A stretch of DNA of 48,925 nucleotides, from the IMG/VR virus record IMGVR_UViG_3300045988_151382. One strand, written 5' to 3'. Source of the DNA: a virus (lineage: Duplodnaviria; Heunggongvirae; Uroviricota; Caudoviricetes). Shown in pieces: positions 4,989-48,925 of this stretch (positions are counted from its first letter, which is position 1; the number at the start of each line of letters is the position of its first letter). The notes beneath the pieces are model-generated. The model was not told where the DNA came from and made no database searches. It was given only the letters and a program-made list of their open reading frames with translations. The translations under genes and the position numbers were made by a program.

Positions 4989-5196
4989 TATTGCGTCTCC
5001 ACGGAGGAAAATTGTTTACTGATATTGGCATAACCGGAGCATCAGGAACTTTAAGAATAATCCCCGCAGAAAAAAGCACCGTAAAGCGGTGCTCAGTATT
5101 AGCATCAATAAGAAGATAAGACAGGTACTCATTACCATACAACTTTAAAGCGATACTATCCCATGAGTCCCCTTGAACCGTTCTATAATCATCCAA
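4978..5196 (-). CDS. Tail protein X-like with LysM-like motif
   Basis: 72 aa ORF, motif DSWDSIALKLYG resembles LysM; located just after tape measure gene. Confidence 0.5.
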   Translation of the reverse strand: MDDYRTVQGDSWDSIALKLYGNEYLSYLLIDANTEHRFTVLFSAGIILKVPDAPVMPISVNNFPPWRRNSVT

Positions 5197-24175: not shown

Positions 24176-24441
24176 TCATCATCTCCTGCCGCACATACAA
24201 CCTCACAAAAAACATCAGCGGAATGTTTCTTTTTGAATGAATGGCGCTCAAAACCGCACTCAATATCAGGCGCAAAAACATCCACCACATACGGTCTTTC
24301 AGAATGTTTGTTTTCCCAACGATAAACCGTAGTGACGTTGAAATGTTTTAACGCTTCACGGTACTCAACGCTGCCCGTCAGGTTTTTTGAGGTCAGGTAT
24401 TGCAGGAGGTTTTTTACTACTTCACGGTCTTGTACTTTCAT
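24172..24441 (-). CDS. Hypothetical protein, first gene after promoter cassette copy 1
   Basis: 89 aa ORF; ATG preceded by GGAG within conserved leader. Confidence 0.45.
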   Translation of the reverse strand: MKVQDREVVKNLLQYLTSKNLTGSVEYREALKHFNVTTVYRWENKHSERPYVVDVFAPDIECGFERHSFKKKHSADVFCEVVCAAGDDE

Positions 24442-24553
24442 CGGGTTATCTCCGGTTTAACCAGGGCGGGTATCGCTCGGTTTCGGGTATAACCATAGGA
24501 AATTTTTTCCCACCTGTAAAGCACTTTTTATATAAATATATAATTATATAATT
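24442..24553 (-). promoter_or_regulatory. Conserved promoter-plus-leader cassette, copy 1
   Basis: In gene orientation: AT-rich motif, TTTACA, 17-nt spacer, TATGGT, then a conserved ~50-nt leader ending GGAGATAACCCGATG; near-identical copies at 32944..33060 and 41984..42096. Confidence 0.55.
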
Positions 24554-25141
24554 CTATGCCACTTGCCAGAGAGCATCATGCAACTGGATACCTCCATTGC
24601 ACTGGTTGCCCCAGCCATGCCAACCATCAGGTAAATCACCGCGAGCAAACAGCTCAATACGAGGAACATCACCTAACAGCCTTACCAGCTTGTCACGAAC
24701 CACATCAGGCTTCCGAGAATGCTCCAGACGAGGCGATGTAAACGACTGAATGATCCCCGCATCAAGGCGGGTCGGCAATTTGCCTTTTACCGCAAACAAG
24801 CAATCTTCACTGTTTGCACGAGTCATATGCCCCATCCCCATCACCAGCTTATCTGGTTGTCGGCTACCACATTTGTTCCATGTGAAGCCCTTCATGGTCA
24901 TAAGCCTGAATCCCCATGCTTTCACCACCAGCAACGCTTCTTCTGGCTGAGTCGGAACCCACCACATGGCCAACAAACACGATTCAGGATTAGCAAGCTG
25001 CCAGACAGGAATACGAGCAATATCCTCAGCTTTCATCGTTGGATACTTAAAACCAGCTCCACGATTCCCATCCTTACACTTATCTTTGTATTCCCAGGGG
25101 GGATCTGCATAAATCAGATTAAACAATGCAATTGCCTCCAT
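24554..25141 (-). CDS. MT-A70 family DNA N6-adenine methyltransferase
   Basis: 195 aa; N-terminal YADPPWEY motif (DPPW catalytic motif of the MT-A70 family). Confidence 0.7.
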   Translation of the reverse strand: MEAIALFNLIYADPPWEYKDKCKDGNRGAGFKYPTMKAEDIARIPVWQLANPESCLLAMWWVPTQPEEALLVVKAWGFRLMTMKGFTWNKCGSRQPDKLVMGMGHMTRANSEDCLFAVKGKLPTRLDAGIIQSFTSPRLEHSRKPDVVRDKLVRLLGDVPRIELFARGDLPDGWHGWGNQCNGGIQLHDALWQVA

Positions 25142-25449: not shown

Positions 25450-25525
25450 TGGTGGCCCCTACCGGATTTGAACCGATGACCGTGCGATTATGAGTCGCCT
25501 GCTCTAACCACTGAGCTAAGGGGCC
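25450..25525 (-). tRNA. tRNA with CAU anticodon (Met or Ile2/lysidine type), CCA encoded
   Basis: Minus-strand sequence GGCCCCTTAGCTCAGTGGTTAGAGCAGGCGACTCATAATCGC...GGTTCAAATCC...AGGGGCCACCA; 7-bp acceptor stem, D-loop AGCTCAGTGGTTAGAGC, T-loop TTCAAAT. Confidence 0.8.
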
Positions 25526-28952: not shown

Positions 28953-29590
28953 TGGTTGCCTCCTTTGCGAAGCTGGGCAGCGAACCTATCAGCTGCATCC
29001 GCGCAAGCAGAAGCAACGGAATCAAAAAATGGATCATCTCCTGTATCGCGCATCGTCAAAGCGAATGCCTCCACCCCTTGTGCCTGTATTTCTACAAGGG
29101 ATGCCTTAGATGTACTGCTTTTCGCCTCGCCTAATTCGTTATGAGCGATGTTCGCTATACATGCGATGTCTATATCTGGATGATTAATTGGGCAATGGCT
29201 AAGAATTGCCTCAAGTGCTGCTTTTTTGCTTTGGCATTCCGCCACCAGCGCCCCGCAATTGCTTTCATATTCGGCAATACGCTGTTTAGCAGCCTCCAGC
29301 TCAACACGCAGCTTCTCAAGCGTTAGAGCCATCTCCATGTTCTCGTCCAGCAGTTCAATCACATCAGGATCGCTATCATCAACTACTGTTATGCGCGATT
29401 TTTTGTAATGCTCGTCAGCATAAGTTCGTCCAGTTTTGAAGCATCCGTCGTCCTCCATGCCGGAACAGGCATAAACGACATGTGATCCAGATATGCGCTG
29501 CATTGACATTTCCTCGCCACAAACAGAGCATTTAGGCGCTGGTTTCGGTGAAAAACGTTCACGTAACGTATGATAGTAAAGCTCGCTCAC
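28949..29590 (-). CDS. Ea22-like protein with Cys-rich zinc-ribbon-like segment
   Basis: 213 aa; CSVCGEE...YACSG..GC cysteines; C-terminal AAQLRKGGNQ shared with 29587..30396. Confidence 0.4.
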   Translation of the reverse strand: MSELYYHTLRERFSPKPAPKCSVCGEEMSMQRISGSHVVYACSGMEDDGCFKTGRTYADEHYKKSRITVVDDSDPDVIELLDENMEMALTLEKLRVELEAAKQRIAEYESNCGALVAECQSKKAALEAILSHCPINHPDIDIACIANIAHNELGEAKSSTSKASLVEIQAQGVEAFALTMRDTGDDPFFDSVASACADAADRFAAQLRKGGNQ

Positions 29591-30396
29591 TGGCTGCCTC
29601 CTTTGCGAAGCTGTTCAGCGATATCTTCGAGAACGCCATCAGAGAATGAGCGGTCAAAATCGCCTTCCGGCGCATTAGCCATAAACTCAGTAGAGGTAAG
29701 AATCATCCGGGCAATATCCGCGGCGTTCTTCGCAGTATCATCAATAAAACCAGCTTCCCAGGCAGCCAGCATTCTGTTCGCCACAAAGTAAGCTCCCTCC
29801 TTGCGTGCTTCAGTCTTCACTTCATCCAGGAAAGCATCGGTGGCTGGGGTTTCGACATTAGGTCGAAGCTCATAATCACAAACTCTTTCAATCCATGGTG
29901 ATACTCTGTCGCATTTCCTCTTCTTGCGTTCACCGACCTTGGTTGCCTGCTGAATAATTACCCCCCAGCAAATGCTTTCGACCTCTTCGCTCCATCCATC
30001 GCAAGCATCGCCTCTATAGTCGTCAATTGCAGCCTCAGCAGCAGCGATAGCCTCCTCAGCAGTTTTGTGACACTCGAAACTAAATTCAGAGCCATATGAG
30101 AAATACATAGCCCCGGCCTTAAGCCCCGCATTCTCCGCCACCAGCGCCGCGAGATTAGTCTCAAGCTCTGCAATTCGACACATAGCATCAATATTTGTGT
30201 CCTCCAGCCGCTTAATTTCATCCAGAAGCGCCAGCACAATATGTGGCGTTATCAAGGACTCAAATTCGGCAACAGCTTGCTCGCCTCGCTTGTAATTCTT
30301 AATCCCACCTAAATTTTTCGCGTTCTGTGCCGCCTCACGCAGTGCCTGGTAATTAATTTCGCTCACTGGTTGCCTCCTGAATACGCTTAAACTCAA
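29587..30396 (-). CDS. Ea22-like protein
   Basis: 269 aa; contains SEINYQALREAAQ and C-terminal EQLRKGGSQ. Confidence 0.45.
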   Translation of the reverse strand: MSLSVFRRQPVSEINYQALREAAQNAKNLGGIKNYKRGEQAVAEFESLITPHIVLALLDEIKRLEDTNIDAMCRIAELETNLAALVAENAGLKAGAMYFSYGSEFSFECHKTAEEAIAAAEAAIDDYRGDACDGWSEEVESICWGVIIQQATKVGERKKRKCDRVSPWIERVCDYELRPNVETPATDAFLDEVKTEARKEGAYFVANRMLAAWEAGFIDDTAKNAADIARMILTSTEFMANAPEGDFDRSFSDGVLEDIAEQLRKGGSQ

Positions 30397-32943: not shown

Positions 32944-33060
32944 TTTATTCATCAGATTTCTCCGGTTTAACCAGGGCGGGTATCGCTCGGTTTTGGGTAT
33001 AACCTTAGGAAATTTTTTCCCACCTGTAAAGCACTTTTTATATAAATCTATAATTATATA
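32944..33060 (-). promoter_or_regulatory. Conserved promoter-plus-leader cassette, copy 2 (immediately downstream of Q-like gene)
   Basis: Same architecture and about 90 percent identity to copies at 24442..24553 and 41984..42096. Confidence 0.55.
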
Positions 33061-33122
33061 TTTATAGATTTTCCGATATTCCCGGTGCCTACAAATCACC
33101 AAAACAGCTCAAAATGACACTT

Positions 33123-34470: not shown

Positions 34471-34982
34471 TGATGCCCCCCGTCATTCCTGGTGCTTTTC
34501 ACCGTGCGGCTGCTTAAAAACCTGCCATCACGAGAAACAGACACATCTCGTTTACCCAACCTCATTTCACGGCGGTAACATTCAGAAAATGCCTCGTCCG
34601 GCAGCATATAAATGCGACGCTTCGCCTCCGAATCCAGAAGGGAACGGCTTGGAGTTACATATAAAAACGACTCATCAATAGGGACAAAACCACGAGCAAG
34701 AATTGCTGGCAGAATGCCAGGAAGAACGCAGAAAACAGCTCCACGATGCAGCAACATCTGGTACTCCATGACCTCCGTTATCCCCGTGACGACTGTTACG
34801 GTGTCACGTCTGTTACGGCTGGCAACCAGTCGCTGCACACGTCCAATTTTCTGCTCTACAGATAGACGTTTACTATCGTTATCAATATGATCGATAACAA
34901 ATCCTTTAATCGTTTGATCAAGGTAGTGCACCACCTGCGATTGAATCTGGTGATTATCACCAAAGAAGGCCAGAATCATCAT
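34467..34982 (-). CDS. Hypothetical protein
   Basis: 171 aa ORF in the early operon. Confidence 0.35.
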   Translation of the reverse strand: MMILAFFGDNHQIQSQVVHYLDQTIKGFVIDHIDNDSKRLSVEQKIGRVQRLVASRNRRDTVTVVTGITEVMEYQMLLHRGAVFCVLPGILPAILARGFVPIDESFLYVTPSRSLLDSEAKRRIYMLPDEAFSECYRREMRLGKRDVSVSRDGRFLSSRTVKSTRNDGGHQ

Positions 34983-35473
34983 TCCTCAAGCCTCCCAAGT
35001 GCTGAACGCCGGGCGTTGCTAATCTCCTTATGAATCAGCTCGATATCGCTGGAATCTTTATTCTTAAACTCCAGCACGGCAATCGCATCACGAACCTCTG
35101 AAACGGTTACGTGTGAGTGTTTCCAGCGAGCAATGAATCGCGGACCGCGTAGATTGCAACGCTCCGCAGGTATCCCCAGCTCAGAGAAAACCGCTTTCAG
35201 CCTTGATAAGCAGTTAACAGGGAGATTCCCTTTGATCTTGTTCTGCCGAACCGATGTGCCATCGCTACGCTGGCGCTGACGTTCGGCAAAATCTGCCGCC
35301 CATTGCTGGACATTAATCCGGCCTTCCGAATACGCCACCAGCAGCGTCAGGTTATCCGCACGAGGGAATCTCTCGAAGCGATACCAGGCACCAATCAGTG
35401 ATGACGTAAAGCCAAACTTTCTGGCAACACCAATTTGGCCTCCATTTTCATCAACCCACTCCTGAAAGGTCAT
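34979..35473 (-). CDS. Early regulator, Cro/YdaS-like HTH N-terminal domain
   Basis: 164 aa; divergent from the CI-like repressor across an operator-containing intergenic region. Confidence 0.45.
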   Translation of the reverse strand: MTFQEWVDENGGQIGVARKFGFTSSLIGAWYRFERFPRADNLTLLVAYSEGRINVQQWAADFAERQRQRSDGTSVRQNKIKGNLPVNCLSRLKAVFSELGIPAERCNLRGPRFIARWKHSHVTVSEVRDAIAVLEFKNKDSSDIELIHKEISNARRSALGRLEE

Positions 35474-35489
35474 TTAACTAACTCCAGTT

Positions 35490-35612
35490 AAACCACGATT
35501 TGTGGTATTAAAACCACAAATCGTGAGTTTTTCAATGGAAAAACAAAAAATAACCTTCTATTTGTGGTCTACCTCTCGTCTTGCCGTGTGAAAACCACTA
35601 AATGTGGTAATG
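35490..35612. promoter_or_regulatory. Immunity operator/promoter region with three ACCAC-N5-GTGGT operators plus a half-site
   Basis: ACCACGATTTGTGGT, ACCACAAATCGTGAG and ACCACTAAATGTGGT between divergent repressor and cro-like genes; TATAAAT -10-like element near 35612. Confidence 0.65.
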
Positions 35613-35645: not shown

Positions 35646-36308
35646 ATGAAAAGCAACGACGAGAACATCAAGAAAGAAATAGGTCTGCGCATTCAGACTC
35701 TACGGAAACAATCCGGCATGACTGCCGGAGATCTCCAGCAAGTCACTGGAATAGGCTTAAGCACCTTGCAGAACTATGAGGCCGGATTAAGACAACCATC
35801 TATACCTGCCATCAAGAAAATCGCGCACGCCCTGAAAGCATCAGCGCCTTATATCGCGTGCTTAACAGATAACCCGTTCCCACCCCAGAATACTAACGCT
35901 CCTGTTATTCCTGGGCTTGTAGCTATAAAAAATGACATAGCATCGCACGCCGGAGAAAAGCCAGTGCTGGCGATAGAACAGGAGATTCTACGAAGCAAGA
36001 ACATCAACCCATCGTCTCTGTCTGTTCTCCAGAGCAACGATGAGCTAAAGCTAATGTCACCAACAATATCCCCTGGCTCCCAAGTCCTGATTAATACAGA
36101 CGATACAGAGGTTCATGAGGGGATCTATGCCCTTGAAGACAGAAATGGCCTGGTTGTTTTGAGGCACTGTAGAGTCATACCGGGTGACAATGCTGTTATG
36201 CTGTCAACCGAAAGGGATGCTGAAATAAACACTAAGCATCTGAATAACGAGGAATTTAAGCGTTATAAAGTTCTTGGCCGCGTAGTTAGTGTTGTCAACT
36301 GGTTATGA
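35646..36308 (+). CDS. CI-like repressor (HTH_XRE N-terminus, LexA/S24-like C-terminal domain)
   Basis: 220 aa; N-terminal IGLRIQTLRKQSGMTAGDLQQVTGIGLSTLQNYEAG HTH; C-terminal beta-rich domain. Confidence 0.7.
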   Translation: MKSNDENIKKEIGLRIQTLRKQSGMTAGDLQQVTGIGLSTLQNYEAGLRQPSIPAIKKIAHALKASAPYIACLTDNPFPPQNTNAPVIPGLVAIKNDIASHAGEKPVLAIEQEILRSKNINPSSLSVLQSNDELKLMSPTISPGSQVLINTDDTEVHEGIYALEDRNGLVVLRHCRVIPGDNAVMLSTERDAEINTKHLNNEEFKRYKVLGRVVSVVNWL

Positions 36309-36905: not shown

Positions 36906-36925
36906 AACACATGGAGTCTCGACAA

Positions 36926-37579
36926 ATGACTATATCTGTAGGTATTTTCAACGGAAAAGGCGGCGTAACCAAATCAACCATTGCTCGTGCTTTAGCAGTT
37001 GCTTATGCAAAGGCTGGCTGGAATGTATGCCTGATCGATATGGATGTGCTTAACGGAACGGTAACGCGTTGGGTACAACGCAGAATGGCCAACAATATCG
37101 AACCTGCAATCGCGGCGCAGCCGTGCGGCACGCCATCACAAGTCCAGAAAATCATCGAATCAGAAGTATACGACCTGGTTATCGTTGATGGCGGTGCCTA
37201 CGCATCTGAATCAGTACCGAAGCTCTCTGAATTTCTGGATATGGTTATTTTGCCAACCAGATTCTCTACCGATGACCTGGAAACCACCGTTAACACAGCT
37301 CACGGCATCGTTAAAAAGGGTGTACCAATCAAGAAAATTTGCATGGTGTTTTCCGGCGCGGCTGAAAACGAAGCTGACTATATTGAAGCCCAAGAGTACC
37401 TGGCTAATACGCCATACTTTGTTGTCGATAAGTACATTCCCCACAAGCCAGCTCTGAGCAAAGCTCAGGATAAAGGCTTAAGCCTCATTGAGTGCTCATA
37501 CGTTGCGCCACGCAAAAAAGCAGACGACGTTATTCAGGGGATTATCAACCAGCTTGAGGCTCTGACTACTGCCGCGTAA
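36926..37579 (+). CDS. ParA-like partition ATPase (short type)
   Basis: Deviant Walker A GKGGVTKST near the N-terminus when started at 36926 (ORF track starts 36911). Confidence 0.7.
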   Translation: MTISVGIFNGKGGVTKSTIARALAVAYAKAGWNVCLIDMDVLNGTVTRWVQRRMANNIEPAIAAQPCGTPSQVQKIIESEVYDLVIVDGGAYASESVPKLSEFLDMVILPTRFSTDDLETTVNTAHGIVKKGVPIKKICMVFSGAAENEADYIEAQEYLANTPYFVVDKYIPHKPALSKAQDKGLSLIECSYVAPRKKADDVIQGIINQLEALTTAA

Positions 37580-37622: not shown

Positions 37623-37871
37623 ATGGCCGCACCATCAAAACCACCAAAGAAGAACAGCAAAGGCGTACCGCCATCGATCGAACAACCGCAGGTTTTCGAC
37701 CCGACTGAAACGCCAGCCAGAACCAAATCAGGTGGGGCACAAATGGCGTTTAACGTCGACCCTGAATTTAAACGCGAGTACAAAACGTTCGCCAGCTCAA
37801 TGGATATGTCATTGAAAGAAGTGCTAACAAAATCTTTTGAGTTACTCAAGGCTCAATACAACCAGAAGTAA
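37623..37871 (+). CDS. ParG-like ribbon-helix-helix partition protein
   Basis: 82 aa; disordered basic N-terminus and C-terminal RHH-like segment; follows the ParA-like gene. Confidence 0.55.
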   Translation: MAAPSKPPKKNSKGVPPSIEQPQVFDPTETPARTKSGGAQMAFNVDPEFKREYKTFASSMDMSLKEVLTKSFELLKAQYNQK

Positions 37872-38093: not shown

Positions 38094-38115
38094 AAAAAAG
38101 GCCCCCGAAGGGGCC
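38094..38115 (-). terminator. Rho-independent terminator (minus strand)
   Basis: Stem GGCCCC/GGGGCC with 4-nt loop followed by TTTTTT on the minus strand, just downstream of small ORF 38122..38244. Confidence 0.55.
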
Positions 38116-38121
38116 TAATCG

Positions 38122-38244
38122 CTACTTGCTGCTAATGTTTATCGTCACATTCAGAGCGTTATCAGTAATCTTCCAACCCTCTCCATGTGGCGTAAACAAA
38201 GCTCCAGTAACAACGATAAAAATACACATACAGTATTTTTTCAT
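38122..38244 (-). CDS. Small hydrophobic peptide (about 40 aa)
   Basis: MKKYCMCIFIVVTGALFTPHGEGWKITDNALNVTINISSK from internal Met of ORF 38122..38304; own terminator. Confidence 0.3.
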   Translation of the reverse strand: MKKYCMCIFIVVTGALFTPHGEGWKITDNALNVTINISSK

Positions 38245-38559
38245 TGTATGGCCCTTACAGGCCGTTTCACGGCATCCCCACCGACGAAAACAACGCGAGA
38301 GCAAGCACGGCTGCTTGTGCTTGCATGTACGGCAACGGAGAATCCTCCCCTAAAGTCGGTGCCCGGGTGCGAATCGGCGGGAAGGTCCACAGGTATTTTA
38401 CGATTATTTTAAGATTAGTAATAGGAAAGAAATTAAACGAAAAAACTCGTTTATTTTCACAAAATCAGTAACCTACCCACAATCTGTGAGTTTGCAGGCA
38501 CAACAAGAACCACAATTTTTTGAAGCATAATAGTGGACTATTATTACCTTTTGGGTAAA

Positions 38560-38840
38560 ATTAACTTGCTGCTTGTGCTTGCGTGGTTGTTTATACAACA
38601 ACGTAATGCTGAAAGGACCGCGAATCCGATCAGCACGAAAGAACCGTCCTCAATAGGGCGGTTTTTTTGTTTCTGCCTACCAATAAACCCACGCTATGTG
38701 GTTGTCTCTGTTAAAATCCCGCCGTATTGACATGAATGCGCCATTGGTGGACACTTTCCGAGCCGTAGCAAAATCTACGGTCGGGATTGGAACCCCGTAG
38801 ACACAATGGCGCATACCGCGTTAGCGGTTTTTTTATGCGT
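38560..38840 (+). ncRNA. Candidate regulatory RNA region upstream of the antirepressor operon; two intrinsic terminators
   Basis: Terminators at about 38644..38668 (ACCGTCCT/AGGGCGGT stem then T7) and 38815..38834 (ACCGC/GCGGT stem then T7); no ORF; repeated GATTGGAACC element. Confidence 0.45.
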
Positions 38841-39000
38841 AAAGCACTGCTACACCCAAATTATGGTGGGGCGTGCGGGGGAGTCGTAAGACTCGCCGGT
38901 TCGTCATTGTGTCCGGTAGTTCCAACCCTGCACGTCTCACCACCCAATGATTGGAACCTGACGGTGGTGAGTATCCTTAACCTTTAAGGGAATCATCACA

Positions 39001-39192
39001 ATGACAAACCTACCCCATGACTATTACGTCAACCTCGTAAAGATCCTTCTCAAGAAAGCCTCATACGCCGATAAATTCCGCCTGGCTGAAATCATCGAGC
39101 GCGAAGCTATGCGCATCGCCAGCAACGATAACGCTGTTTCTGTCGCAAAAATCTCCCTCGTAACCAAAGTAGTTATGGGAGGTGCAAAATGA
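39001..39192 (+). CDS. Small protein translationally coupled to antirepressor
   Basis: 63 aa ORF whose stop overlaps the ant ATG (ATGA). Confidence 0.4.
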   Translation: MTNLPHDYYVNLVKILLKKASYADKFRLAEIIEREAMRIASNDNAVSVAKISLVTKVVMGGAK

Positions 39193-40457
39193 AAACGCTT
39201 CCGACCGTTAACACCCTACAGCCTATCCTGCATAACCAAATCCCTGTCATTACTACCGAGTTACTGGCACAGCTTTACGGCGTATCTCCTGTACGCATTC
39301 GACAAAATCATCATGAGAATAAGGAACGCTTCATTGAAGGTAAGCACTACTTCAAAATTGAAGGTAACGAACTTCGAGAGTTAAAGCACAAAGTGACTCA
39401 AGATAATGATGTGAAGAACAAAAACTCTTTAAGAGATTCAGTTAATGACGCCCCCTCTAAAAGAGAGAGCGACGAGCACAGAGTAGTTTTAAACTACTCT
39501 GTTAACCACAAGGTAACTAAAAGTCACTCTGTGAAAATCGCCCGTAACGTTCGCTCCCTCATTCTCTGGACAGAACGCGGGGCTGCACGTCACGCTAAAA
39601 TGCTCGAAACCGATCAGGCATGGGATGTATTCGAACGGCTGGAAGACTGCTACTTCAACCAGAACGCGCAAACGGCCGCGACCGTAACCGTCTCACCAAA
39701 CAATGCTCGTGAGGTTGTCGATACGCTCAACGCTAAACCAATGTATTACGTTAAGGTGTGCAACAACGAGCCACTCACAACCTCAGCCGATGTTGCCCAA
39801 GCATTCAGCACCACAAACAATTCCATCGTTATGGCCATCGATGCGTTACGCATTCCTCGCACGGCTGCGGCGCGTCACTTCTTTAAAGAACAACGACCGC
39901 TGGAAGGAAGCGACCGCGAAATAACAATCTATCGCATGACAAAAGACGGATTTACCTTGCTCATGGAAAGTATCGACGGTCCAGGCGTGAAGGATATCAA
40001 GCTGGCCTACATTGAAGCCTTTAACGCTATCAGCAGCGTGTTAAAGGCAGAATACGAGCGAATGCTATACAACCGACTGTATCAGGAAACAAAGATTATC
40101 CGAACGGCAACAGAACATCATCGGCTATTAACGGAACCAAACTACCGCAAGACACTAATCAAAGAGTTTGACAAGGCGACGGAGAAAACTAAAGCGGCAC
40201 TAAATCTACCAACAATGACTAAAGATGATGTGATATCAGCCTTACTTCTTGATCTGCTCAGAAACGCCAGAGCACTTATCAGTTTTGACGAAAACCTGAA
40301 TCCTCAGCTCAAGCTACTACCACCGACAGGCAAAGTAGTCGACCAAGCAGATCACAACAGCATACTCAGCGTACTGGATGCAAACCTGCCAGCCAGGACA
40401 CTACAGGATCTGATAAAAACATGTGCTGATAAGCTGGCACAGAAAAGCAGACCATAA
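39189..40457 (+). CDS. Antirepressor (ORF6N/KilA-N-type N-terminal domain plus Ant-like C-terminal domain)
   Basis: 422 aa; N-terminal IPVITTELLAQLYGVSPVRIRQNHHENKERFIEGKHYFKIEG resembles ORF6N/Bro-N-type domains. Confidence 0.6.
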   Translation: MKTLPTVNTLQPILHNQIPVITTELLAQLYGVSPVRIRQNHHENKERFIEGKHYFKIEGNELRELKHKVTQDNDVKNKNSLRDSVNDAPSKRESDEHRVVLNYSVNHKVTKSHSVKIARNVRSLILWTERGAARHAKMLETDQAWDVFERLEDCYFNQNAQTAATVTVSPNNAREVVDTLNAKPMYYVKVCNNEPLTTSADVAQAFSTTNNSIVMAIDALRIPRTAAARHFFKEQRPLEGSDREITIYRMTKDGFTLLMESIDGPGVKDIKLAYIEAFNAISSVLKAEYERMLYNRLYQETKIIRTATEHHRLLTEPNYRKTLIKEFDKATEKTKAALNLPTMTKDDVISALLLDLLRNARALISFDENLNPQLKLLPPTGKVVDQADHNSILSVLDANLPARTLQDLIKTCADKLAQKSRP

Positions 40458-40465
40458 CTACAAGG

Positions 40466-40495
40466 GGCTACGGCCCCTTACTCTTTTCTCTCTTA
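40466..40495 (+). terminator. Rho-independent terminator after the antirepressor gene
   Basis: Stem AAGGGGC/GCCCCTT with 4-nt loop followed by a T-rich tract. Confidence 0.5.
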
Positions 40496-41197
40496 TCAAC
40501 ACCAGAGACTTTCTGAAAATCCTTTCGAATAGCGTCAGCATCACGCGCCAAGCCCATACTGGAACGTGTCGCCATATGACGAAAATGATCAACTGCCGGA
40601 AACAAAGAAATAATGGACCCAATAGCTTGCAGCAAACTTGCTTTTCTACGCATCATAATTCCACCATAACCGATAGCCACCCTTCAGACACAACCCCCCC
40701 CTCCCCCCATACAGGGTGCCCTTTACCGGAGTTCCGGCCCCTTCTCAAAAGCATCAAAAAAGCTCGAGATCGAGTACCGGAACTCATGCCACCAGATAGC
40801 TCCACATCGTTTCCAATGCTTCGCCGCCGTGTGCGCCCTGTGGCCCACAATCATGCCATTGGTCGTCTGATATACCTTCTTCTGCTCATTGAGCACAGGC
40901 GAGTTGTCGCACTCCTGCCTTTCTCAGACTCGACTTAGTTTAGATCGCTGTTCCTGGCTTGCGTCAGCACACTTTCCCCTTGTACGCATACCCGCGCGCC
41001 ACTCCGTCCAAAAACACCGAACCCAACGAAGTGGCAAAGACAACGACGCGAGCGTGAGTCTGAAACAGGCACCAGTAAAAAAGGGGTTGCAGGCGCAAAA
41101 AGATTTGATTATCTTTAGACGCAAGAAAGCCGCCCCAATCAAGAGGTGTCTTTTTAAATCCAGCCTACCAAGCAAGATTTAAATTTCAGACTGAAAA

Positions 41198-41222
41198 CCG
41201 CCCGGCAAGGCGGTTTTTGTCT
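41198..41222 (+). terminator. Rho-independent terminator (plus strand)
   Basis: Stem AACCGCC/GGCGGTT with loop CGGCAA followed by TTTTTG. Confidence 0.5.
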
Positions 41223-41266
41223 TTCTGGCGCTTACATTACACCACCATAAAACGATCCGTAAAGGA

Positions 41267-41539
41267 TCATTTGATCTCTTGTTCCAATTCTGACGACACT
41301 TTAACCTTTTCCCATACAAGGGTTTGCAGCCTTAACAGAATCGCATCTTTATCAAGGTGTGAAAGATCCTTAACCATATCGTCAAATGACAGAACGCGAA
41401 TGGCCATCTCAATGACCCTCGGCGGCTCCCCCTTCTCATATCGCTTATATGTAGCCAACGATATCCCAAATTCTTCGGCGGCTCGCTCCTGCGTCCAGTT
41501 CATCCCACGACGCCATAATTTCAATTCATAACCCGTCAT
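41267..41539 (-). CDS. XRE-family HTH regulator
   Basis: Start at internal ATG 41539 preceded by GAGGAGGA; sequence LKLWRRGMNWTQERAAEEFGISLATYKRYE is a typical HTH. Confidence 0.6.
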   Translation of the reverse strand: MTGYELKLWRRGMNWTQERAAEEFGISLATYKRYEKGEPPRVIEMAIRVLSFDDMVKDLSHLDKDAILLRLQTLVWEKVKVSSELEQEIK

Positions 41540-41567
41540 AGCATCCTCCTCGCACAATATTAACACT

Positions 41568-41594
41568 CGCAAAGTGTCAAAATGACACTTTGCG
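41568..41594. promoter_or_regulatory. 27-bp perfect palindrome, probable operator
   Basis: CGCAAAGTGTCA-AAA-TGACACTTTGCG, about 30 nt upstream of the HTH gene start. Confidence 0.55.
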
Positions 41595-41602
41595 TATTGT
41601 GT

Positions 41603-41983
41603 TTACTTAACGAGGAATAAAAATGGTTTATTGTTCGGCGGTGTAATCGGAGCTGGCTCGCTTTTGCTCATGCGATCAGTGTACCAGGCCAGCTCCTTGT
41701 CAAAGTAAGCCTGATTAAAATAGGCAATGAATGTAGTTTCAAATCCATAACGACCGCTAATACGCAGCATCTGATTGCCGTTCTCTGTTTCCAGGTATAC
41801 CTGGGCACGTTCCTGATTCTCCTTCAGCCAGGTTAAAGCCTCATCGCACGAGGACACACGATACTCATCATCGTAGCCGTCATCGATGCGGCTTGAAGAA
41901 GAACGGCAAATCACGCCAACAGAACCAGCCAGGATAGTTTGAATTTTAAGGAAAGCGTTTTTGCGGATTTTAATCATGCTCAT
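41603..41983 (-). CDS. Hypothetical protein, first gene after promoter cassette copy 3
   Basis: 126 aa ORF. Confidence 0.4.
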   Translation of the reverse strand: MSMIKIRKNAFLKIQTILAGSVGVICRSSSSRIDDGYDDEYRVSSCDEALTWLKENQERAQVYLETENGNQMLRISGRYGFETTFIAYFNQAYFDKELAWYTDRMSKSEPAPITPPNNKPFLFLVK

Positions 41984-42096
41984 CGGGTTATCTCCGGTTT
42001 AACCAGGGCGGGTATCGCTCGGTTTCGGGCATAACACTAGGAAATATTTTCCCACCTGTAAAGCGCTTTTTATATAAATCTATAATTATATAATTC
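41984..42096 (-). promoter_or_regulatory. Conserved promoter-plus-leader cassette, copy 3
   Basis: Same architecture as the copies at 24442..24553 and 32944..33060. Confidence 0.55.
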
Positions 42097-42104
42097 CATG
42101 AGCA

Positions 42105-42130
42105 CAAAAAAGCCCCTTTGCAACAGGGGC
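42105..42130 (-). terminator. Rho-independent terminator after the toxin-antitoxin pair (minus strand)
   Basis: Stem GCCCCT/AGGGGC followed by TTTTTTGT on the minus strand, 17 nt after the antitoxin stop. Confidence 0.55.
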
Positions 42131-42146
42131 TTATCATTCGTTCTGA

Positions 42147-42446
42147 TCAGATGTTAAACGCTATTCGTTTTCCTGTGGGAAGCTCAACATCCAGGCTTAA
42201 TTTGCCTCCCATAGCTTCAACGTAACGCTTTAATGTCGCCAGCTTTAAATCATTTCCGCGCTGCTCCAGCTTTGTTACTGCTGGCTGGCTTATACCCATC
42301 GCCTCAGCAACCTGCTTTTGTGATAACTGGAGTTCTTCACGCATCATCTGCAAGCCGACCTCAAGAATCATCTCATCTGCCATTTCTTTAATTCGCGCCT
42401 GGCTTTCCGGTGAACGGCTGGCAATCACCTCATCTAATGTTCTCAT
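42147..42446 (-). CDS. HigA-like XRE-family antitoxin
   Basis: 99 aa; HTH LSQKQVAEAMGISQPAVTKLE; directly downstream of toxin-like gene with ATG/stop overlap. Confidence 0.6.
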   Translation of the reverse strand: MRTLDEVIASRSPESQARIKEMADEMILEVGLQMMREELQLSQKQVAEAMGISQPAVTKLEQRGNDLKLATLKRYVEAMGGKLSLDVELPTGKRIAFNI

Positions 42447-42799
42447 TACTTGCTCTCCAGTGTGTTCAGATGTGCTGCAAACTCATCCTCAGCTATACGC
42501 ACCAGTTTTTTATAAAACCGCTTATCGTTACTTTTGTCTCCTGCACAAAGAACGATAGCCCGGCGAATCGGATCGAACGCATAAAAGGCTCTTATCGGAC
42601 GGCCAGAAAACTGAACGCGAAGCTCTTTCATATTTTTGTACCGAGAACCTTTTACGGTATCGGCATATGGCCTGGGTAACTCAGGTCCGTAAACCTGTAG
42701 CTTTTTCAAATCAGCCAAAACCTTTTCCTGAAGAGCGTCTTCTTGCTCATTTAGCCAGTCGTCAAATCGCTGGCTAAAAAGTACCGTCCACATGCTCAA
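42446..42799 (-). CDS. HigB-like (RelE-fold) toxin
   Basis: 117 aa; toxin-first arrangement characteristic of HigBA modules. Confidence 0.5.
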   Translation of the reverse strand: MSMWTVLFSQRFDDWLNEQEDALQEKVLADLKKLQVYGPELPRPYADTVKGSRYKNMKELRVQFSGRPIRAFYAFDPIRRAIVLCAGDKSNDKRFYKKLVRIAEDEFAAHLNTLESK

Positions 42800-43037: not shown

Positions 43038-43328
43038 CTATTTTTGTGACTTTACTCCTGGCATATGGACTTCCCAGCGACGAATCCCCATAGCTGCGCA
43101 AAAATCAGCCACATAATTCAATCCCGCCCATTCGCGGATACCACCACGGGCTTTTTCAATGAAAACGGCAATCCCTTTTTTATTGAGAGCAAAAAGCCGC
43201 CAGCTTTTTGTCACTTCGTCCTGGGTAGCCACAACACAAGTGAAAGCTCCCATGCGATACAGGTCCAAGAACTCTTTGCGTGTTTTGCGTACAAGTTCCA
43301 TAACAAGCCTCATATTTGCATGTTTCAA
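43038..43328 (-). CDS. Hypothetical protein
   Basis: 96 aa ORF, coupled to upstream gene. Confidence 0.35.
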   Translation of the reverse strand: MKHANMRLVMELVRKTRKEFLDLYRMGAFTCVVATQDEVTKSWRLFALNKKGIAVFIEKARGGIREWAGLNYVADFCAAMGIRRWEVHMPGVKSQK

Positions 43329-43624
43329 ACATCTGTTTTGTTATCAATGAAGATTAACCCTAACCCAGCGAAGTAACACAGCAGCGCCCAGGCTGCATAC
43401 GGAATGCTGGATCTGGATGTGGACTCCTTTAACATCTGCCAGTTGCGAACATTGCGACTATCTTTTAAGCCTAGTTTTTTGGCCAACTGCGAGCCGCTCA
43501 TTCCGGTCAGGCCAATGACTGCCCGAACTTCTCCACATGTAGGAGATTCCCATTCATCCGCTTTTTTTAAACAAGCCGGATTCAACATTTTTAAAACAGT
43601 ATCTTTATCCATAACCATCTCCAT
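43325..43624 (-). CDS. Putative HTH protein with C-terminal transmembrane helix
   Basis: 99 aa; HTH-like GMSGSQLAKKLG and hydrophobic AAWALLCYFAGLGLIF. Confidence 0.4.
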   Translation of the reverse strand: MEMVMDKDTVLKMLNPACLKKADEWESPTCGEVRAVIGLTGMSGSQLAKKLGLKDSRNVRNWQMLKESTSRSSIPYAAWALLCYFAGLGLIFIDNKTDV

Positions 43625-44255: not shown

Positions 44256-45104
44256 TTAATGTTGGAGTGATTTCCAGGTCTTTCTTAGCCTGTTATAACG
44301 CTGCTCAACGAGGGATCGTAAATATGCAAGGTCAGCACCTGGATACATGCCATCAGCAAATTCCTGGCTAACCTCTCTAGTGATTTGATGACGAAGTTCG
44401 GCCTCTCCCTTTTCCCGGACAAGACGCGCAGCTCTCTCCGCTGCTTTCTGTTTTGCCTTTATCTCTCTGGCCGTCTTCCTCTGGCGCCATACATTCTCCA
44501 TCTGCTCCTGAATAACAATACGCTTATAATCAGCCTCCGTTATCGCTTTTTTAAGCCGTTCGCTATTCTTCGCATTGAAGTAATTAAGTTTCTGGCTAAC
44601 CGCACGTCTCCATGCTTGTTCAGTAATACCAACGGTTTCCAGCAGTTGATCACGAATCTCTATTTTCGCTGGCCAATACTGTTTATTCACCCGATCCCAG
44701 CGACGTTCATAATCAATAAAACCTAACGCTTTCAGTTGCGACAACGCCCTTGTACAGCGCGTTATAGACTTGTTCCCAGCTTCGGATACGGTAGACAGGC
44801 CGCAAAAATCAGCCAACGCCTCAGCACTAGCCAGAACCCGCTTAGAAATGATGTTTACATGGTGCAAAATCGCAGCGATCACAGCATTAATCGCCCGACG
44901 ACGATGCTCGTTTATCCGGCGCTTCCGCCCTGACGGTTGATTAACGTAGAACGCAACCTCACACGTAAGATCACGACCATTAATGCGCTGTAAAGCATCA
45001 GATAACACCAGCGGCAGCTTGTGCGTATGGTGCTTTGGAGGCTGGAACTCCGGCGACAAATTACAAACGTAAGCGGAACGTAGAGACGGCATTGGTCTAT
45101 CCAT
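44256..45104 (-). CDS. repA: Replication initiator RepA, IncFII RepA1-like
   Basis: Segment CGLSTVSEAGNKSITRCTRALSQLKALGFIDYE resembles recalled IncFII RepA1 block; start uncertain (ORF open to 45236, internal ATG at 45104). Confidence 0.65.
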   Translation of the reverse strand: MDRPMPSLRSAYVCNLSPEFQPPKHHTHKLPLVLSDALQRINGRDLTCEVAFYVNQPSGRKRRINEHRRRAINAVIAAILHHVNIISKRVLASAEALADFCGLSTVSEAGNKSITRCTRALSQLKALGFIDYERRWDRVNKQYWPAKIEIRDQLLETVGITEQAWRRAVSQKLNYFNAKNSERLKKAITEADYKRIVIQEQMENVWRQRKTAREIKAKQKAAERAARLVREKGEAELRHQITREVSQEFADGMYPGADLAYLRSLVEQRYNRLRKTWKSLQH

Positions 45105-45136
45105 ATGTTCGCTCTTGCGTCCACGGAAAACCAACG

Positions 45137-45229
45137 TATAATGGGAGTTGTCGAGGCGCCCATGGATTGTTGTTGTTGGTTTTCCGTGGATGTCGCAAGA
45201 AGCCCGCAGATTTATCTGCGGGCTTTTTG
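45137..45229 (+). ncRNA. CopA-like antisense RNA candidate opposite the repA leader
   Basis: TTGCGT-N16-TATAAT promoter, 15-bp inverted repeat CCACGGAAAACCAAC/GTTGGTTTTCCGTGG, then terminator GCCCGCAGA-TTTA-TCTGCGGGC-TTTTT. Confidence 0.5.
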
Positions 45230-45702
45230 TTTCCATATCTGGTCAGTTTCCAACCAGACACCCACAATCATAACCACGTTACGTGGTTTTAAGAGAACTC
45301 TACCACAACACTTTCGGTCATGCACGAAGTCTCTCACTGATCGAACGATAATCCACCAGTAAAAGGATCTAAATTGGATCTCGTTTTGCGAGCATCATAC
45401 TACTGGCCTAACTCCAGTCAATGATTCCCAGCCAGAAACCTGCGGTAAACTCATCGTTCAGCAATATGCTGTCCGGCTTCAAAGATAAGGTGACATCATC
45501 CCTTAACAGCGCGGCCAGTTCAGTTAAAGGGCTGTTCTGATTTAATGCTGGCCACTCATACCTGGTAATAAGTGGTCAGTCTTAACACTCACCATTTGAT
45601 TGCACCCGTGTTGACGATTTGTTACTGGATATCAGACACGCTGGATAGCCAGTAGAAACATACCATTAAAATTATTACAATAATTGGTCACATGATTATC
45701 TT

Positions 45703-48836: not shown

Positions 48837-48925
48837 AAAGCTGATTTATCCTGGATATCTGCACCGTTCTGATTTTTCGCCAGACGTGAATTTGCGTTGT
48901 CATTTGCTGCCTTGACCGCTTTTGG
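48837..48925. repeat. Terminal overlap: exact copy of window positions 1..89
   Basis: 89 identical bases at both window ends, coding frame preserved across the join. Confidence 0.85.

Follow-up and report, generated by a model that had tools for sequence, protein, structure and literature searches.

Several described systems resemble the locus analysed here. Toxin-first toxin-antitoxin modules with a separate internal promoter for the antitoxin exist, as in higBA of Rts1, where the HTH gene has its own promoter. In acr-aca operons (e.g. AcrIF8-Aca2 of Pectobacterium phage ZF40) the operator is located in the acr promoter or 5' UTR, and Aca2 has been reported to bind an RNA hairpin. In the CUP (conserved upstream repeat) regulon, located in the leading region of the IncN plasmid pKM101, a repeated promoter cassette precedes accessory genes. 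Closest in sequence to the regulator studied here are the small XRE-HTH proteins encoded by ygeA of IncI/IncK plasmids and by related genes of conjugative plasmids; in the literature searched, we found no tested function for ygeA-type proteins and no functional study of this small XRE regulator family. A conjugation phenotype has been published for the 'ygeA/ygeB' genes of the F plasmid (PMC9849209), but it was rejected as a guide to the protein described here, as the F plasmid YgeA is unrelated and the shared name is coincidental.

The locus of interest contains a gene for a 126-aa protein that is followed by a gene for an XRE-family HTH protein, with a 27-bp perfect palindrome positioned between them (Table 1). 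The original prediction, made from the sequence alone, interpreted this arrangement as an effector gene followed by an autoregulating HTH gene, i.e. a HigBA-type toxin-antitoxin or small defence module. Our analysis leads us to favour a different explanation, which we consider likely: the locus is composed of two adjacent, separable transcription units, an orphan cargo gene and a self-repressing plasmid regulator, and is not an effector pair.

The stretch of DNA that was analysed (48,925 nt, hereafter the window) is a complete circular element of ~48.8 kb, as bases 1-89 recur at 48837-48925. The locus is 98-100% identical in 62 non-mobilizable plasmids of ~46-52 kb (one record is 94 kb) whose hosts are Escherichia, Salmonella and Klebsiella, including the 48.5-kb plasmid of E. 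coli ATCC 25922 (98.8% identity across the locus), and it is also matched by the Yersinia phages vB_YpM_39/41/44. Because it matches both plasmids and Yersinia phages, the window is a phage-plasmid. An assignment of this phage-plasmid group to pSLy3 was rejected, as pSLy3 falls in the SSU5 supergroup, and the published account of Yersinia phage vB_YpM_HQ103 contains nothing on this locus. The minus strand carries many more ORFs between 1 and 34 kb of the window, and holin genes are annotated in the matching 1-34 kb part of a near-identical plasmid. The locus sits in a mosaic accessory region between repA and the antirepressor operon. Immediately upstream, the HigBA-like pair of the original prediction proved genuine, as it consists of a Gp49/HigB-like gene and an overlapping HTH gene. 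This operon is closed by a terminator-like hairpin, which parts it from the promoter cassette of the 126-aa gene, while a second hairpin terminator closes the HTH unit and faces the convergent antirepressor operon. The terminator program flagged the second hairpin on the plus strand only; on the minus strand the same hairpin is followed by TTTT, and it would be expected to act in both directions. An Rfam search of positions 40400-42150 returned no match.

Table 1. Positions of genes, signals and neighbouring features of the locus in the window.
Feature	Position	Strand	Remarks
CI-like repressor	35646..36308		
ParA	36911..37579		
C4-antisense/isrK + antirepressor (immI-like) region	38762-40457		
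Hairpin terminator after HTH gene	41219-41192		11-bp stem, A/T runs either side
CDS, 90-aa XRE-family HTH	41539..41267	-	phrog_6962, IncI/K 'YgeA'-like; ATG start
SD of HTH gene, GAGGAGG	41551..41545	-	
Putative extended -10 of HTH gene, TGtTAATAT	41565..41557	-	2 nt downstream of palindrome
27-bp perfect palindrome	41568-41594		12+3+12; in 63-nt gap between genes
TTGACA element	41580..41575	-	coding strand
CDS, 126-aa protein (phrog_8090)	41983..41603	-	ATG start; predicted alpha/beta domain (residues 1-107) and disordered tail ending LFLVK
Cassette copies, 121-nt unit	24438-24558, 32948-33068, 41980-42100	copy 3 on -	three copies
Copy 3, SD GGAGA	41995..41991	-	ATG at 41983
Copy 3, leader hairpin	42024..42001	-	
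Copy 3, -10 TAGTGT	42039..42034	-	
Copy 3, spacer		-	17 nt, with dyad GGAAA-ATA-TTTCC inside
Copy 3, -35 TTTACA	42062..42057	-	
Copy 3, AT-rich 8-bp repeats	about 42070-42101	-	
Terminator-like hairpin	42132-42110	-	8-bp stem, 5 GC pairs, T-run
HTH_3/HTH_37 partner of Gp49/HigB-like gene	42446..42147	-	Pfam; genes overlap
Gp49/HigB-like gene	42799..42446	-	PF05973, E 2.4e-23
phrog_8351 HTH-like protein	43624..43325		
IncFII-type RepA	44256..45236		

The 90-aa protein belongs, as predicted, to the XRE-type HTH proteins: its matches to the Pfam families HTH_3 (E 6.4e-7) and HTH_31 (E 4e-6) both pass the curated cut-offs, and it matches phrog_6962 with an E value of 1.6e-45. An AlphaFold2 model (pLDDT 82) contains five helices, of which the last two are long. 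A longer ORF with a TTG start (41572, 101 aa) was rejected, as it begins inside the palindrome and is not conserved, and the ATG at 41539 is preceded by a strong SD. In PLSDB, a homologue is encoded by 3,711 plasmids, of which 3,241 are conjugative, and a scan of one genome per species yielded 28 further Enterobacterales loci (L027-L054) with homologues of 43-66% identity. The genes located beside these homologues differ among the loci examined. Comparison with PADLOC-DB 2.0 returned only mad1 (E 0.027). Among antitoxins, HipB and MqsA are weakly matched by the HTH profile (E 0.005-0.07), whose match to Aca2 (7ezy, E 0.011) is marginal and no better than those to HipB or MqsA, i.e. at the level of a generic HTH. 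The controller (C) protein of a restriction-modification system would have an endonuclease (R) or methyltransferase (M) gene beside it, but neither is found nearby, and the terminator directly follows the HTH gene; the pOXA-48 homologue does precede a Mrr_cat gene.

Most members of this family share a dyad in their upstream regions. Among the 43 distinct upstream regions compared, the sequence A[AT]GTG-N9-CAC[AT]T occurs in 26 at no more than 130 nt from the start codon, as compared to an expectation of 0.003 per 130 nt, and most of the remaining regions contain variants with one mismatch. In most homologues the dyad is positioned 33-66 nt upstream of the start codon, in many unrelated genomic contexts. 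Two dyad sites precede the IncK pCH42 'ygeA' gene (35% identity, E 5e-16), and in several more distant homologues the dyad, as read from their sequences, lies between a -10-like element and the SD. Because the dyad abuts the -10 element or lies between it and the SD, a dimer occupying it would stand in the way of RNA polymerase. Most likely, therefore, the palindrome is the family's own operator, through which the HTH protein probably regulates itself, and this part of the original prediction, autoregulation of the HTH gene, is well supported by the family-wide occurrence of the dyad.

The palindrome itself, CGCAAAGTGTCA-AAA-TGACACTTTGCG, was found where it had been predicted. By chance statistics alone it is only mildly unusual, as 9 of 200 first-order Markov simulations of the window yielded a perfect repeat with arms of at least 12 bp. 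That it is a real feature follows from the retention of its core in relatives that have reached saturation at synonymous sites (pS 0.54-0.76): the dyad core persists despite this saturation in L002, L004 and L025, and the core sequence AAAGTGTCA-N3-TGAYACTTT is kept at 65-74% protein identity in loci from Salmonella (L002, L003 and L013), Klebsiella (L004) and of Yokenella type (L025 and L026). The outer arms change symmetrically (CGC.../...GCG, GTGG.../...CCAC and GCTC.../...GAGC), a pattern of co-variation that equally fits selection on an RNA or a DNA hairpin. No other AAGTG-N9-CACTT-like site is present in the 48.8-kb element, the cassette promoter included, and because this operator-like site is unique, the HTH protein appears to regulate only itself within the element. 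The TTGACA-like element that the original prediction placed at the palindrome does exist, but it reads TTGATA in L002 and ATGACA in L007 (in which the loop is AAA). The conserved promoter element instead appears to be the extended -10, which is located 2 nt beyond the dyad in the window's clade and has the form TGnTAAWAT in the window, L002, L003, L004 and L007, and a shorter form, TGaTAAAT, in L025. If it were transcribed from the cassette promoter, the palindrome RNA would fold with a free energy of -22.5 kcal/mol (z -4.9). A role as a canonical intrinsic terminator on the coding strand was rejected, as no U-tract follows the hairpin, and a program call of a plus-strand terminator was rejected because it is not conserved in relatives. 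The RNA would thus at most terminate transcription weakly or stabilise the 126-aa transcript at its 3' end.

The promoter cassette that had been noticed before the 126-aa gene is the third copy of a 121-nt unit. Over this length the three copies are mutually 88-94% identical, and the genes behind them have start codons that align. The two remaining copies precede a DUF3560 gene and an 89-aa phrog_6143 gene. Homologous cassettes precede 126-aa homologues in L002, L014, L015 and L019, and in L019 another gene as well. Because the cassette is repeated, or has homologues, before other genes, the 126-aa gene is one of its several cargos. Compensatory changes are found in both of its dyads, AU to CG in the spacer dyad and AA/UU to GG/CC in the leader hairpin, each in 4 of 8 sequences. 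The cassette is probably an active promoter, and constitutes an old, structured and regulated sigma-70 promoter/leader unit. The AT-rich repeats of the cassette are also present in the flanks of parA. Candidate regulators of the cassette are the 82-aa product of 37623..37871, encoded beside parA, the phrog_8351 protein and the CI-like repressor.

The 126-aa protein is confirmed as an ORF lacking a recognisable motif, as it matches nothing in Pfam or PADLOC-DB 2.0, and its sole family match is phrog_8090 (E 2.9e-89). AlphaFold2 produced a confident model (pLDDT 82.5, pTM 0.74), in which residues 1-107 are predicted to adopt a beta-alpha-beta-beta-alpha-beta-beta-beta-alpha topology, and a fold search with this model revealed no known fold, toxin or defence match. 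An exhaustive profile search of 1.84 billion proteins recovered only 36 representatives of the family, and its longer fusion proteins contain no annotated domain either. Five residues are invariant (R7, N9, I14, W52 and L53). At the C-terminus, many homologues contain N-[VI]-[VI]-S-L-C-x-Y-R-x-R, whereas the window's clade has L-[FY]-L-V. The net charge, counted from the sequence, is about 0. Both the 126-aa and HTH ORFs are under purifying selection, because non-synonymous differences amount to ~0.2 per site as compared to 0.54-0.76 per synonymous site, a value that is near saturation; dN/dS is about 0.06-0.08 for the 126-aa gene where dS is finite (one pair is saturated) and 0.06-0.22 for the HTH gene. 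In annotated collections, the 126-aa protein matches only non-mobilizable plasmids of 44-56 kb, three Yersinia phages and three Vibrio phages of 42-44 kb, and the family appears confined to phage-plasmids and some Vibrio phages. The predicted combination of a compact novel domain with a flexible tail that has a short hydrophobic end suggests docking onto another protein. Overall, we regard a non-toxic accessory role as the most likely one for the 126-aa protein: the evidence speaks against a toxin and favours an accessory factor of the replicon-proximal region that binds other proteins.

Natural variants separate the two genes. In L025 and L026, the HTH gene, dyad and -10 element are present and the cassette and 126-aa gene are absent, their place being taken by a reverse-oriented winged-helix gene and a HicAB pair. 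None of the 28 Enterobacterales HTH loci contains a 126-aa homologue within 2.5 kb, and a profile search over all retrieved loci located no 126-aa homologue outside the close clade and L014-L021. Conversely, this HTH is absent beside the distant 126-aa homologues (L014-L021, L073 and L074; 33-50% identity), which are carried by IMG/VR contigs of 16-47 kb, a 56-kb Vibrio campbellii plasmid and Vibrio phages of 42-44 kb. In L007 and L012, a 141-aa antisense gene (phrog_7512) lies exactly between the -10 element and the ribosome-binding site of the HTH gene, and the dyad stays at the 3' end of the 126-aa gene. In a sub-lineage of this form, sampled in at least 16 contigs, the HTH gene is frameshifted at a G8 run, leaving 52 aa, and three of the four frameshift loci shown (L079-L081) retain an intact 126-aa gene, the three full loci differing by point substitutions. 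A toxin that depended on the HTH protein could not persist in such a lineage, which speaks against a toxin-antitoxin pair, although the 52-residue remnant includes the HTH and may retain residual function, or the homopolymer may be a site of phase variation or of sequencing error. In the close clade, whose members share 65-100% protein identity (E. coli, Salmonella and Klebsiella), 62 of 63 PLSDB plasmids carry the genes side by side, a near-constancy that would also be expected of a functional pair. Joint inheritance of the kind seen in toxin-antitoxin pairs is nevertheless not observed, as the 126-aa gene occurs intact with a frameshifted HTH gene, whose remnant might still function, and distant homologues occur without the HTH gene. 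Judged by their distribution, the two genes are separable, independently distributed units.

In the two-unit explanation that we favour, cassette copy 3 would drive the 126-aa cargo gene as the first unit. The second unit would be a self-contained negative feedback circuit, in which the HTH protein, presumably dimeric, would occupy the 27-bp palindrome next to its own extended -10 element and thereby turn off its own transcription. The bound protein would also stop read-through from the cassette promoter, and it would neither control the 126-aa gene nor act as an antidote. Because the operator lies 3' of the 126-aa gene, the HTH protein cannot repress the 126-aa promoter, and the locus lacks a feature that is central to toxin-antitoxin as well as acr-aca logic. 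Pairing of the genes as effector and antidote, or as a defence module, thus appears contradicted by the natural variants and by the operator position, leaving autoregulation as the part of the originally proposed pairing that probably stands. The comparisons show the anatomy, conservation, distribution and separability of the units; DNA binding, promoter activity, lack of toxicity and protein docking are all inferred properties in this scheme.

The first unit can be elaborated by considering the neighbours of the 126-aa gene. A homologue of the HTH-like protein phrog_8351 is encoded within about 1.5 kb of the 126-aa homologue in the window, L014, L015, L019 and Vibrio L073, i.e. in every diverged phage-plasmid lineage examined; in Vibrio phage 230E39-1 no phrog_8351 homologue lies beside the 126-aa homologue, which follows replication genes. 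In L014, P0049 and P0054, the 126-aa homologue forms a fusion with a 76-aa domain, which in other elements has a gene of its own. An HMM of this domain finds no match in the window, and phrog_4595 (43038..43328) was rejected as its counterpart (BLASTP E 1.3, null HMM result). Tentatively, and with low confidence, phrog_8090 can be viewed as a new-fold family of phage-plasmids and some Vibrio phages that forms part of a three-operon cassette regulon and has a role in establishment, e.g. anti-defence or docking to host factors via its C-terminal tail, with phrog_8351 and the 76-aa protein as partners and with the palindrome serving as both a DNA operator and an RNA element that couples the units.

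A related reading, in which the 126-aa protein works with the genes next to repA (phrog_8351 and the 76-aa family) in a copy-number, establishment or lysogeny-control circuit and the XRE-HTH protein is unrelated, refines the first unit and does not exclude the two-unit explanation. It draws on the proximity of phrog_8351, on the Rosetta-stone fusion with the 76-aa domain, on the replication genes preceding the homologue in phage 230E39-1 and on the AT-rich repeats that the cassette has in common with the parA flanks. We consider it unlikely, as the sample is small and consists of related elements that may owe their shared gene order to common descent alone, the window has no copy of the 76-aa domain, and no similarity to known replication or partition proteins was found.

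An alternative that we regard as quite improbable assigns the 126-aa protein to an anti-defence or establishment burst from the strong cassette promoter, with the HTH protein acting in an Aca-like manner and possibly binding the palindrome as an RNA hairpin. The order of a small orphan protein followed by a small HTH, the restriction of the 126-aa family to mobile elements, the stable hairpin with its co-varying outer stem, the weak profile match to Aca2 and the presence of HTH homologues in the leading regions of conjugative plasmids, beside ardA, are all consistent with this idea. It is countered by the position of the sole site, which follows the effector gene while the cassette promoter has none, by the independent distribution of the two families, by the generic level of the Aca2 match, and by the 126-aa protein itself, which has no known anti-defence fold and, at a net charge of about 0, no acidic DNA-mimic character.

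Finally, we regard as very improbable a toxin-first type II toxin-antitoxin module, in which the 126-aa protein is a new toxin and the HTH protein, expressed from an internal promoter like that of higBA, serves as both antitoxin and autorepressor. In its favour, the genes keep their order and adjacency at protein identities as low as about 65%, the plasmid maintenance region in which they lie also holds a genuine Gp49/HigB-like pair alongside, HipB and MqsA are weak profile matches of the HTH protein, and Rts1 offers a precedent for the internal promoter. Against it, the 126-aa protein matches no toxin family or fold, the operator is downstream of the putative toxin gene, whose cassette promoter carries an unrelated dyad, the 63-nt gap shows no sign of translational coupling, the HTH family occurs beside varying neighbours, and in the variants described above the genes occur apart, the HTH gene is frameshifted or another gene lies between the two.

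These results remove a toxin-antitoxin or defence call that looked plausible and is unsupported, and they illustrate that the combination of a small unknown gene, an HTH gene and a palindrome can result from independent modules that abut in a mosaic plasmid region. They also provide AAGTG-N9-CACTT as a testable operator consensus for an XRE family that is encoded by over 3,700 sequenced plasmids of enterobacteria, the majority of them conjugative. The regulator itself is ordinary, and the remaining novelty lies in the phrog_8090 family and the cassette regulon. As an orphan with a confident model and no fold relatives, the 126-aa protein is a reasonable low-priority target for work on phage-plasmid accessory genes.

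Among known systems, the HTH protein most closely resembles the ygeA-type regulators of IncI/IncK and related conjugative plasmids, with which it shares family membership (35% identity to IncK pCH42 YgeA and 42% to the pOXA-48 HTH), size (about 80-90 aa) and the same AAGTG-N9-CACTT dyad upstream, which is present twice before ygeA. In pOXA-48, the HTH gene is internal to a Mrr-like operon whose upstream dyad is AATGTTCA-N4-TGAACATT. All of these genes are plasmid-borne; the one described here is carried by a phage-plasmid and is located directly downstream of an unrelated cargo gene. In addition, its operator precedes the extended -10 element, while theirs overlaps the transcription start region.

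Like HigBA-type modules, the locus contains a small protein gene followed by an HTH gene with what is probably its own promoter, as well as a palindromic operator, in a plasmid maintenance region. However, no RelE/HigB-like or other toxin fold is found, and the operator does not appear to govern the gene that comes first. The two genes also occur apart in natural variants, one lineage of which dispenses with the HTH; the true Gp49/HigB-like and HTH pair (42799..42147), with its overlapping genes, provides a direct contrast immediately upstream. Similarly, acr-aca operons resemble the locus in that the gene for a small orphan protein precedes one for a small, autorepressing HTH protein that acts on inverted repeats, and in that these repeats can form an RNA hairpin, but here the operator is 3' of the first gene and the match to Aca2 is marginal. 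The promoter cassette is most reminiscent of the pKM101 CUP regulon, as both place a repeated, promoter-bearing cassette before several unrelated small accessory genes of one replicon, an arrangement that implies coordinated control. The two differ in sequence, host element and cargo, and the cassette described here is a 121-nt unit with a spacer dyad and a leader hairpin that is common to distant phage-plasmids.

The promoter/leader cassette of 121 nt, present in three copies in the window, also has homologues in distant phage-plasmids (see table, where L-numbers denote loci of relatives, with L002 from Salmonella, L004 from Klebsiella and L073 from Vibrio). Both the dyad within its 17-nt promoter spacer and the 5' leader hairpin immediately ahead of the SD are kept by compensatory changes, which suggests that the cassette is the target of a spacer-binding regulator and produces a structured leader.

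The 27-bp palindrome that separates the 126-aa gene from the XRE-family HTH gene varies at its centre, as the 3 nt on the coding strand read either TTT or AAA among close relatives with near-identical arms (L007:4388-4414 compared with window 41568-41594). The centre thus appears as if inverted between these relatives, and the swap abolishes the TTGACA-like hexamer. In some relatives, a gene for a 141-aa protein (phrog_7512) is inserted antisense to the HTH gene, precisely between its -10 and ribosome-binding site. Judged by eye, the N-terminus of this protein is hydrophobic, and a Pfam search with it returned no match. One sub-lineage that carries the inserted gene has a +1 frameshift in the HTH gene at a G8 run, which could represent either gene decay or phase variation.

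The genomic settings of HTH homologues differ widely. On the pOXA-48-type plasmid the homologue lies inside an operon, immediately 5' of a Mrr_cat nuclease gene, and in L022 its gene overlaps that of a downstream 152-aa hydrophobic protein. Elsewhere, the adjoining locus encodes Gabija-like domains (an OLD-type TOPRIM ATPase and a UvrD helicase), or an adjoining partial ORF resembles HerA/FtsK by eye. Based on these varied neighbours, the HTH family may control effector genes in contexts other than that of the window. The 126-aa family (phrog_8090) also has variable partners: a 76-aa domain with the motif W.M..DNAS.RA.RG.G...F.SL..VE..YKSWRG is joined to it in some elements and encoded by a standalone adjoining gene in others, and none is found in the window. 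In L014, the protein resembling phrog_8351, the HTH-like neighbour of the 126-aa family, bears an additional C-terminal domain.

Approximately 730 bp (window 40458-41190) separate the HTH terminator from the convergent antirepressor gene. This segment contains no convincing ORF and gave no match in an Rfam search; one short ORF within it has a translation that can still be recognised in the relatives from Salmonella and Klebsiella. Because several relatives encode at this position a protein of 211-264 aa whose N-terminus is hydrophobic (phrog_23465 in L002), the comparison indicates that it is a variable cargo site. The antirepressor gene belongs to a P1/P7-type immI-like module that spans 38762-40457.

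Coordinates of repeats, genes and RNAs in the window and its relatives
Feature	Location	Remarks
Cassette copies	24438-24558, 32948-33068, 41980-42100	repeat comparison
Cassette homologues	L002:3660-3815, L014:3860-4010, L015:3860-4010, L019:3850-3990 and 5060-5205	sequence homology
HTH homologues	L075:3043-4329, L022:3001-3728, L024, L005	regions that include the gene; L075, pOXA-48-type IncL plasmid
141-aa gene	L007:4424-5010, L012, L079-L082	
76-aa domain family	L014:4001-4750, L019:4530-4760, L073:2809-3042, L016, L018	
Counterparts of 40458-41190	L002:5159-5803, L004:1480-2136, L006:5353-5988	
isrK	38762-38834	immI-like module
C4 antisense RNA	38859-38947	immI-like module
63-aa ORF	between C4 RNA and antirepressor gene	immI-like module
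422-aa antirepressor	39189..40457	immI-like module
ryfA-like RNA	38094-38390 (-)	
tRNA	25453-25525 (-)	
Perfect inverted repeat	35494-35525	gap between CI-like gene (35646..36308) and divergent gene 34979..35473
Perfect inverted repeat	45200-45225	within repA 5' end
Perfect inverted repeat	39478-39502	within antirepressor gene
50-nt segment	28915-28964, 29553-29602, 30329-30378	minus-strand ORF starts
AT-rich 8-bp repeats, TTATATAA / TCTATAAT	24515, 25651, 31808, 33025, 36785, 36858, 37579, 42057	~40 nt each
parA	36911..37579	

Besides the palindrome, the window contains three perfect inverted repeats with 12-13-bp arms. A 50-nt segment recurs three times with 64-98% identity, and on the minus strand its end resembles a ribosome-binding site; its placement at the starts of successive ORFs suggests that these are paralogous gene starts. 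AT-rich repeats with an 8-bp period are located 5' of all three cassettes, near two further minus-strand ORF starts, and on both flanks of parA. This set looks like a single regulon or a series of centromere-like sites, and the small 82-aa product of 37623..37871 is a candidate that may bind the repeats, like omega or ParG.
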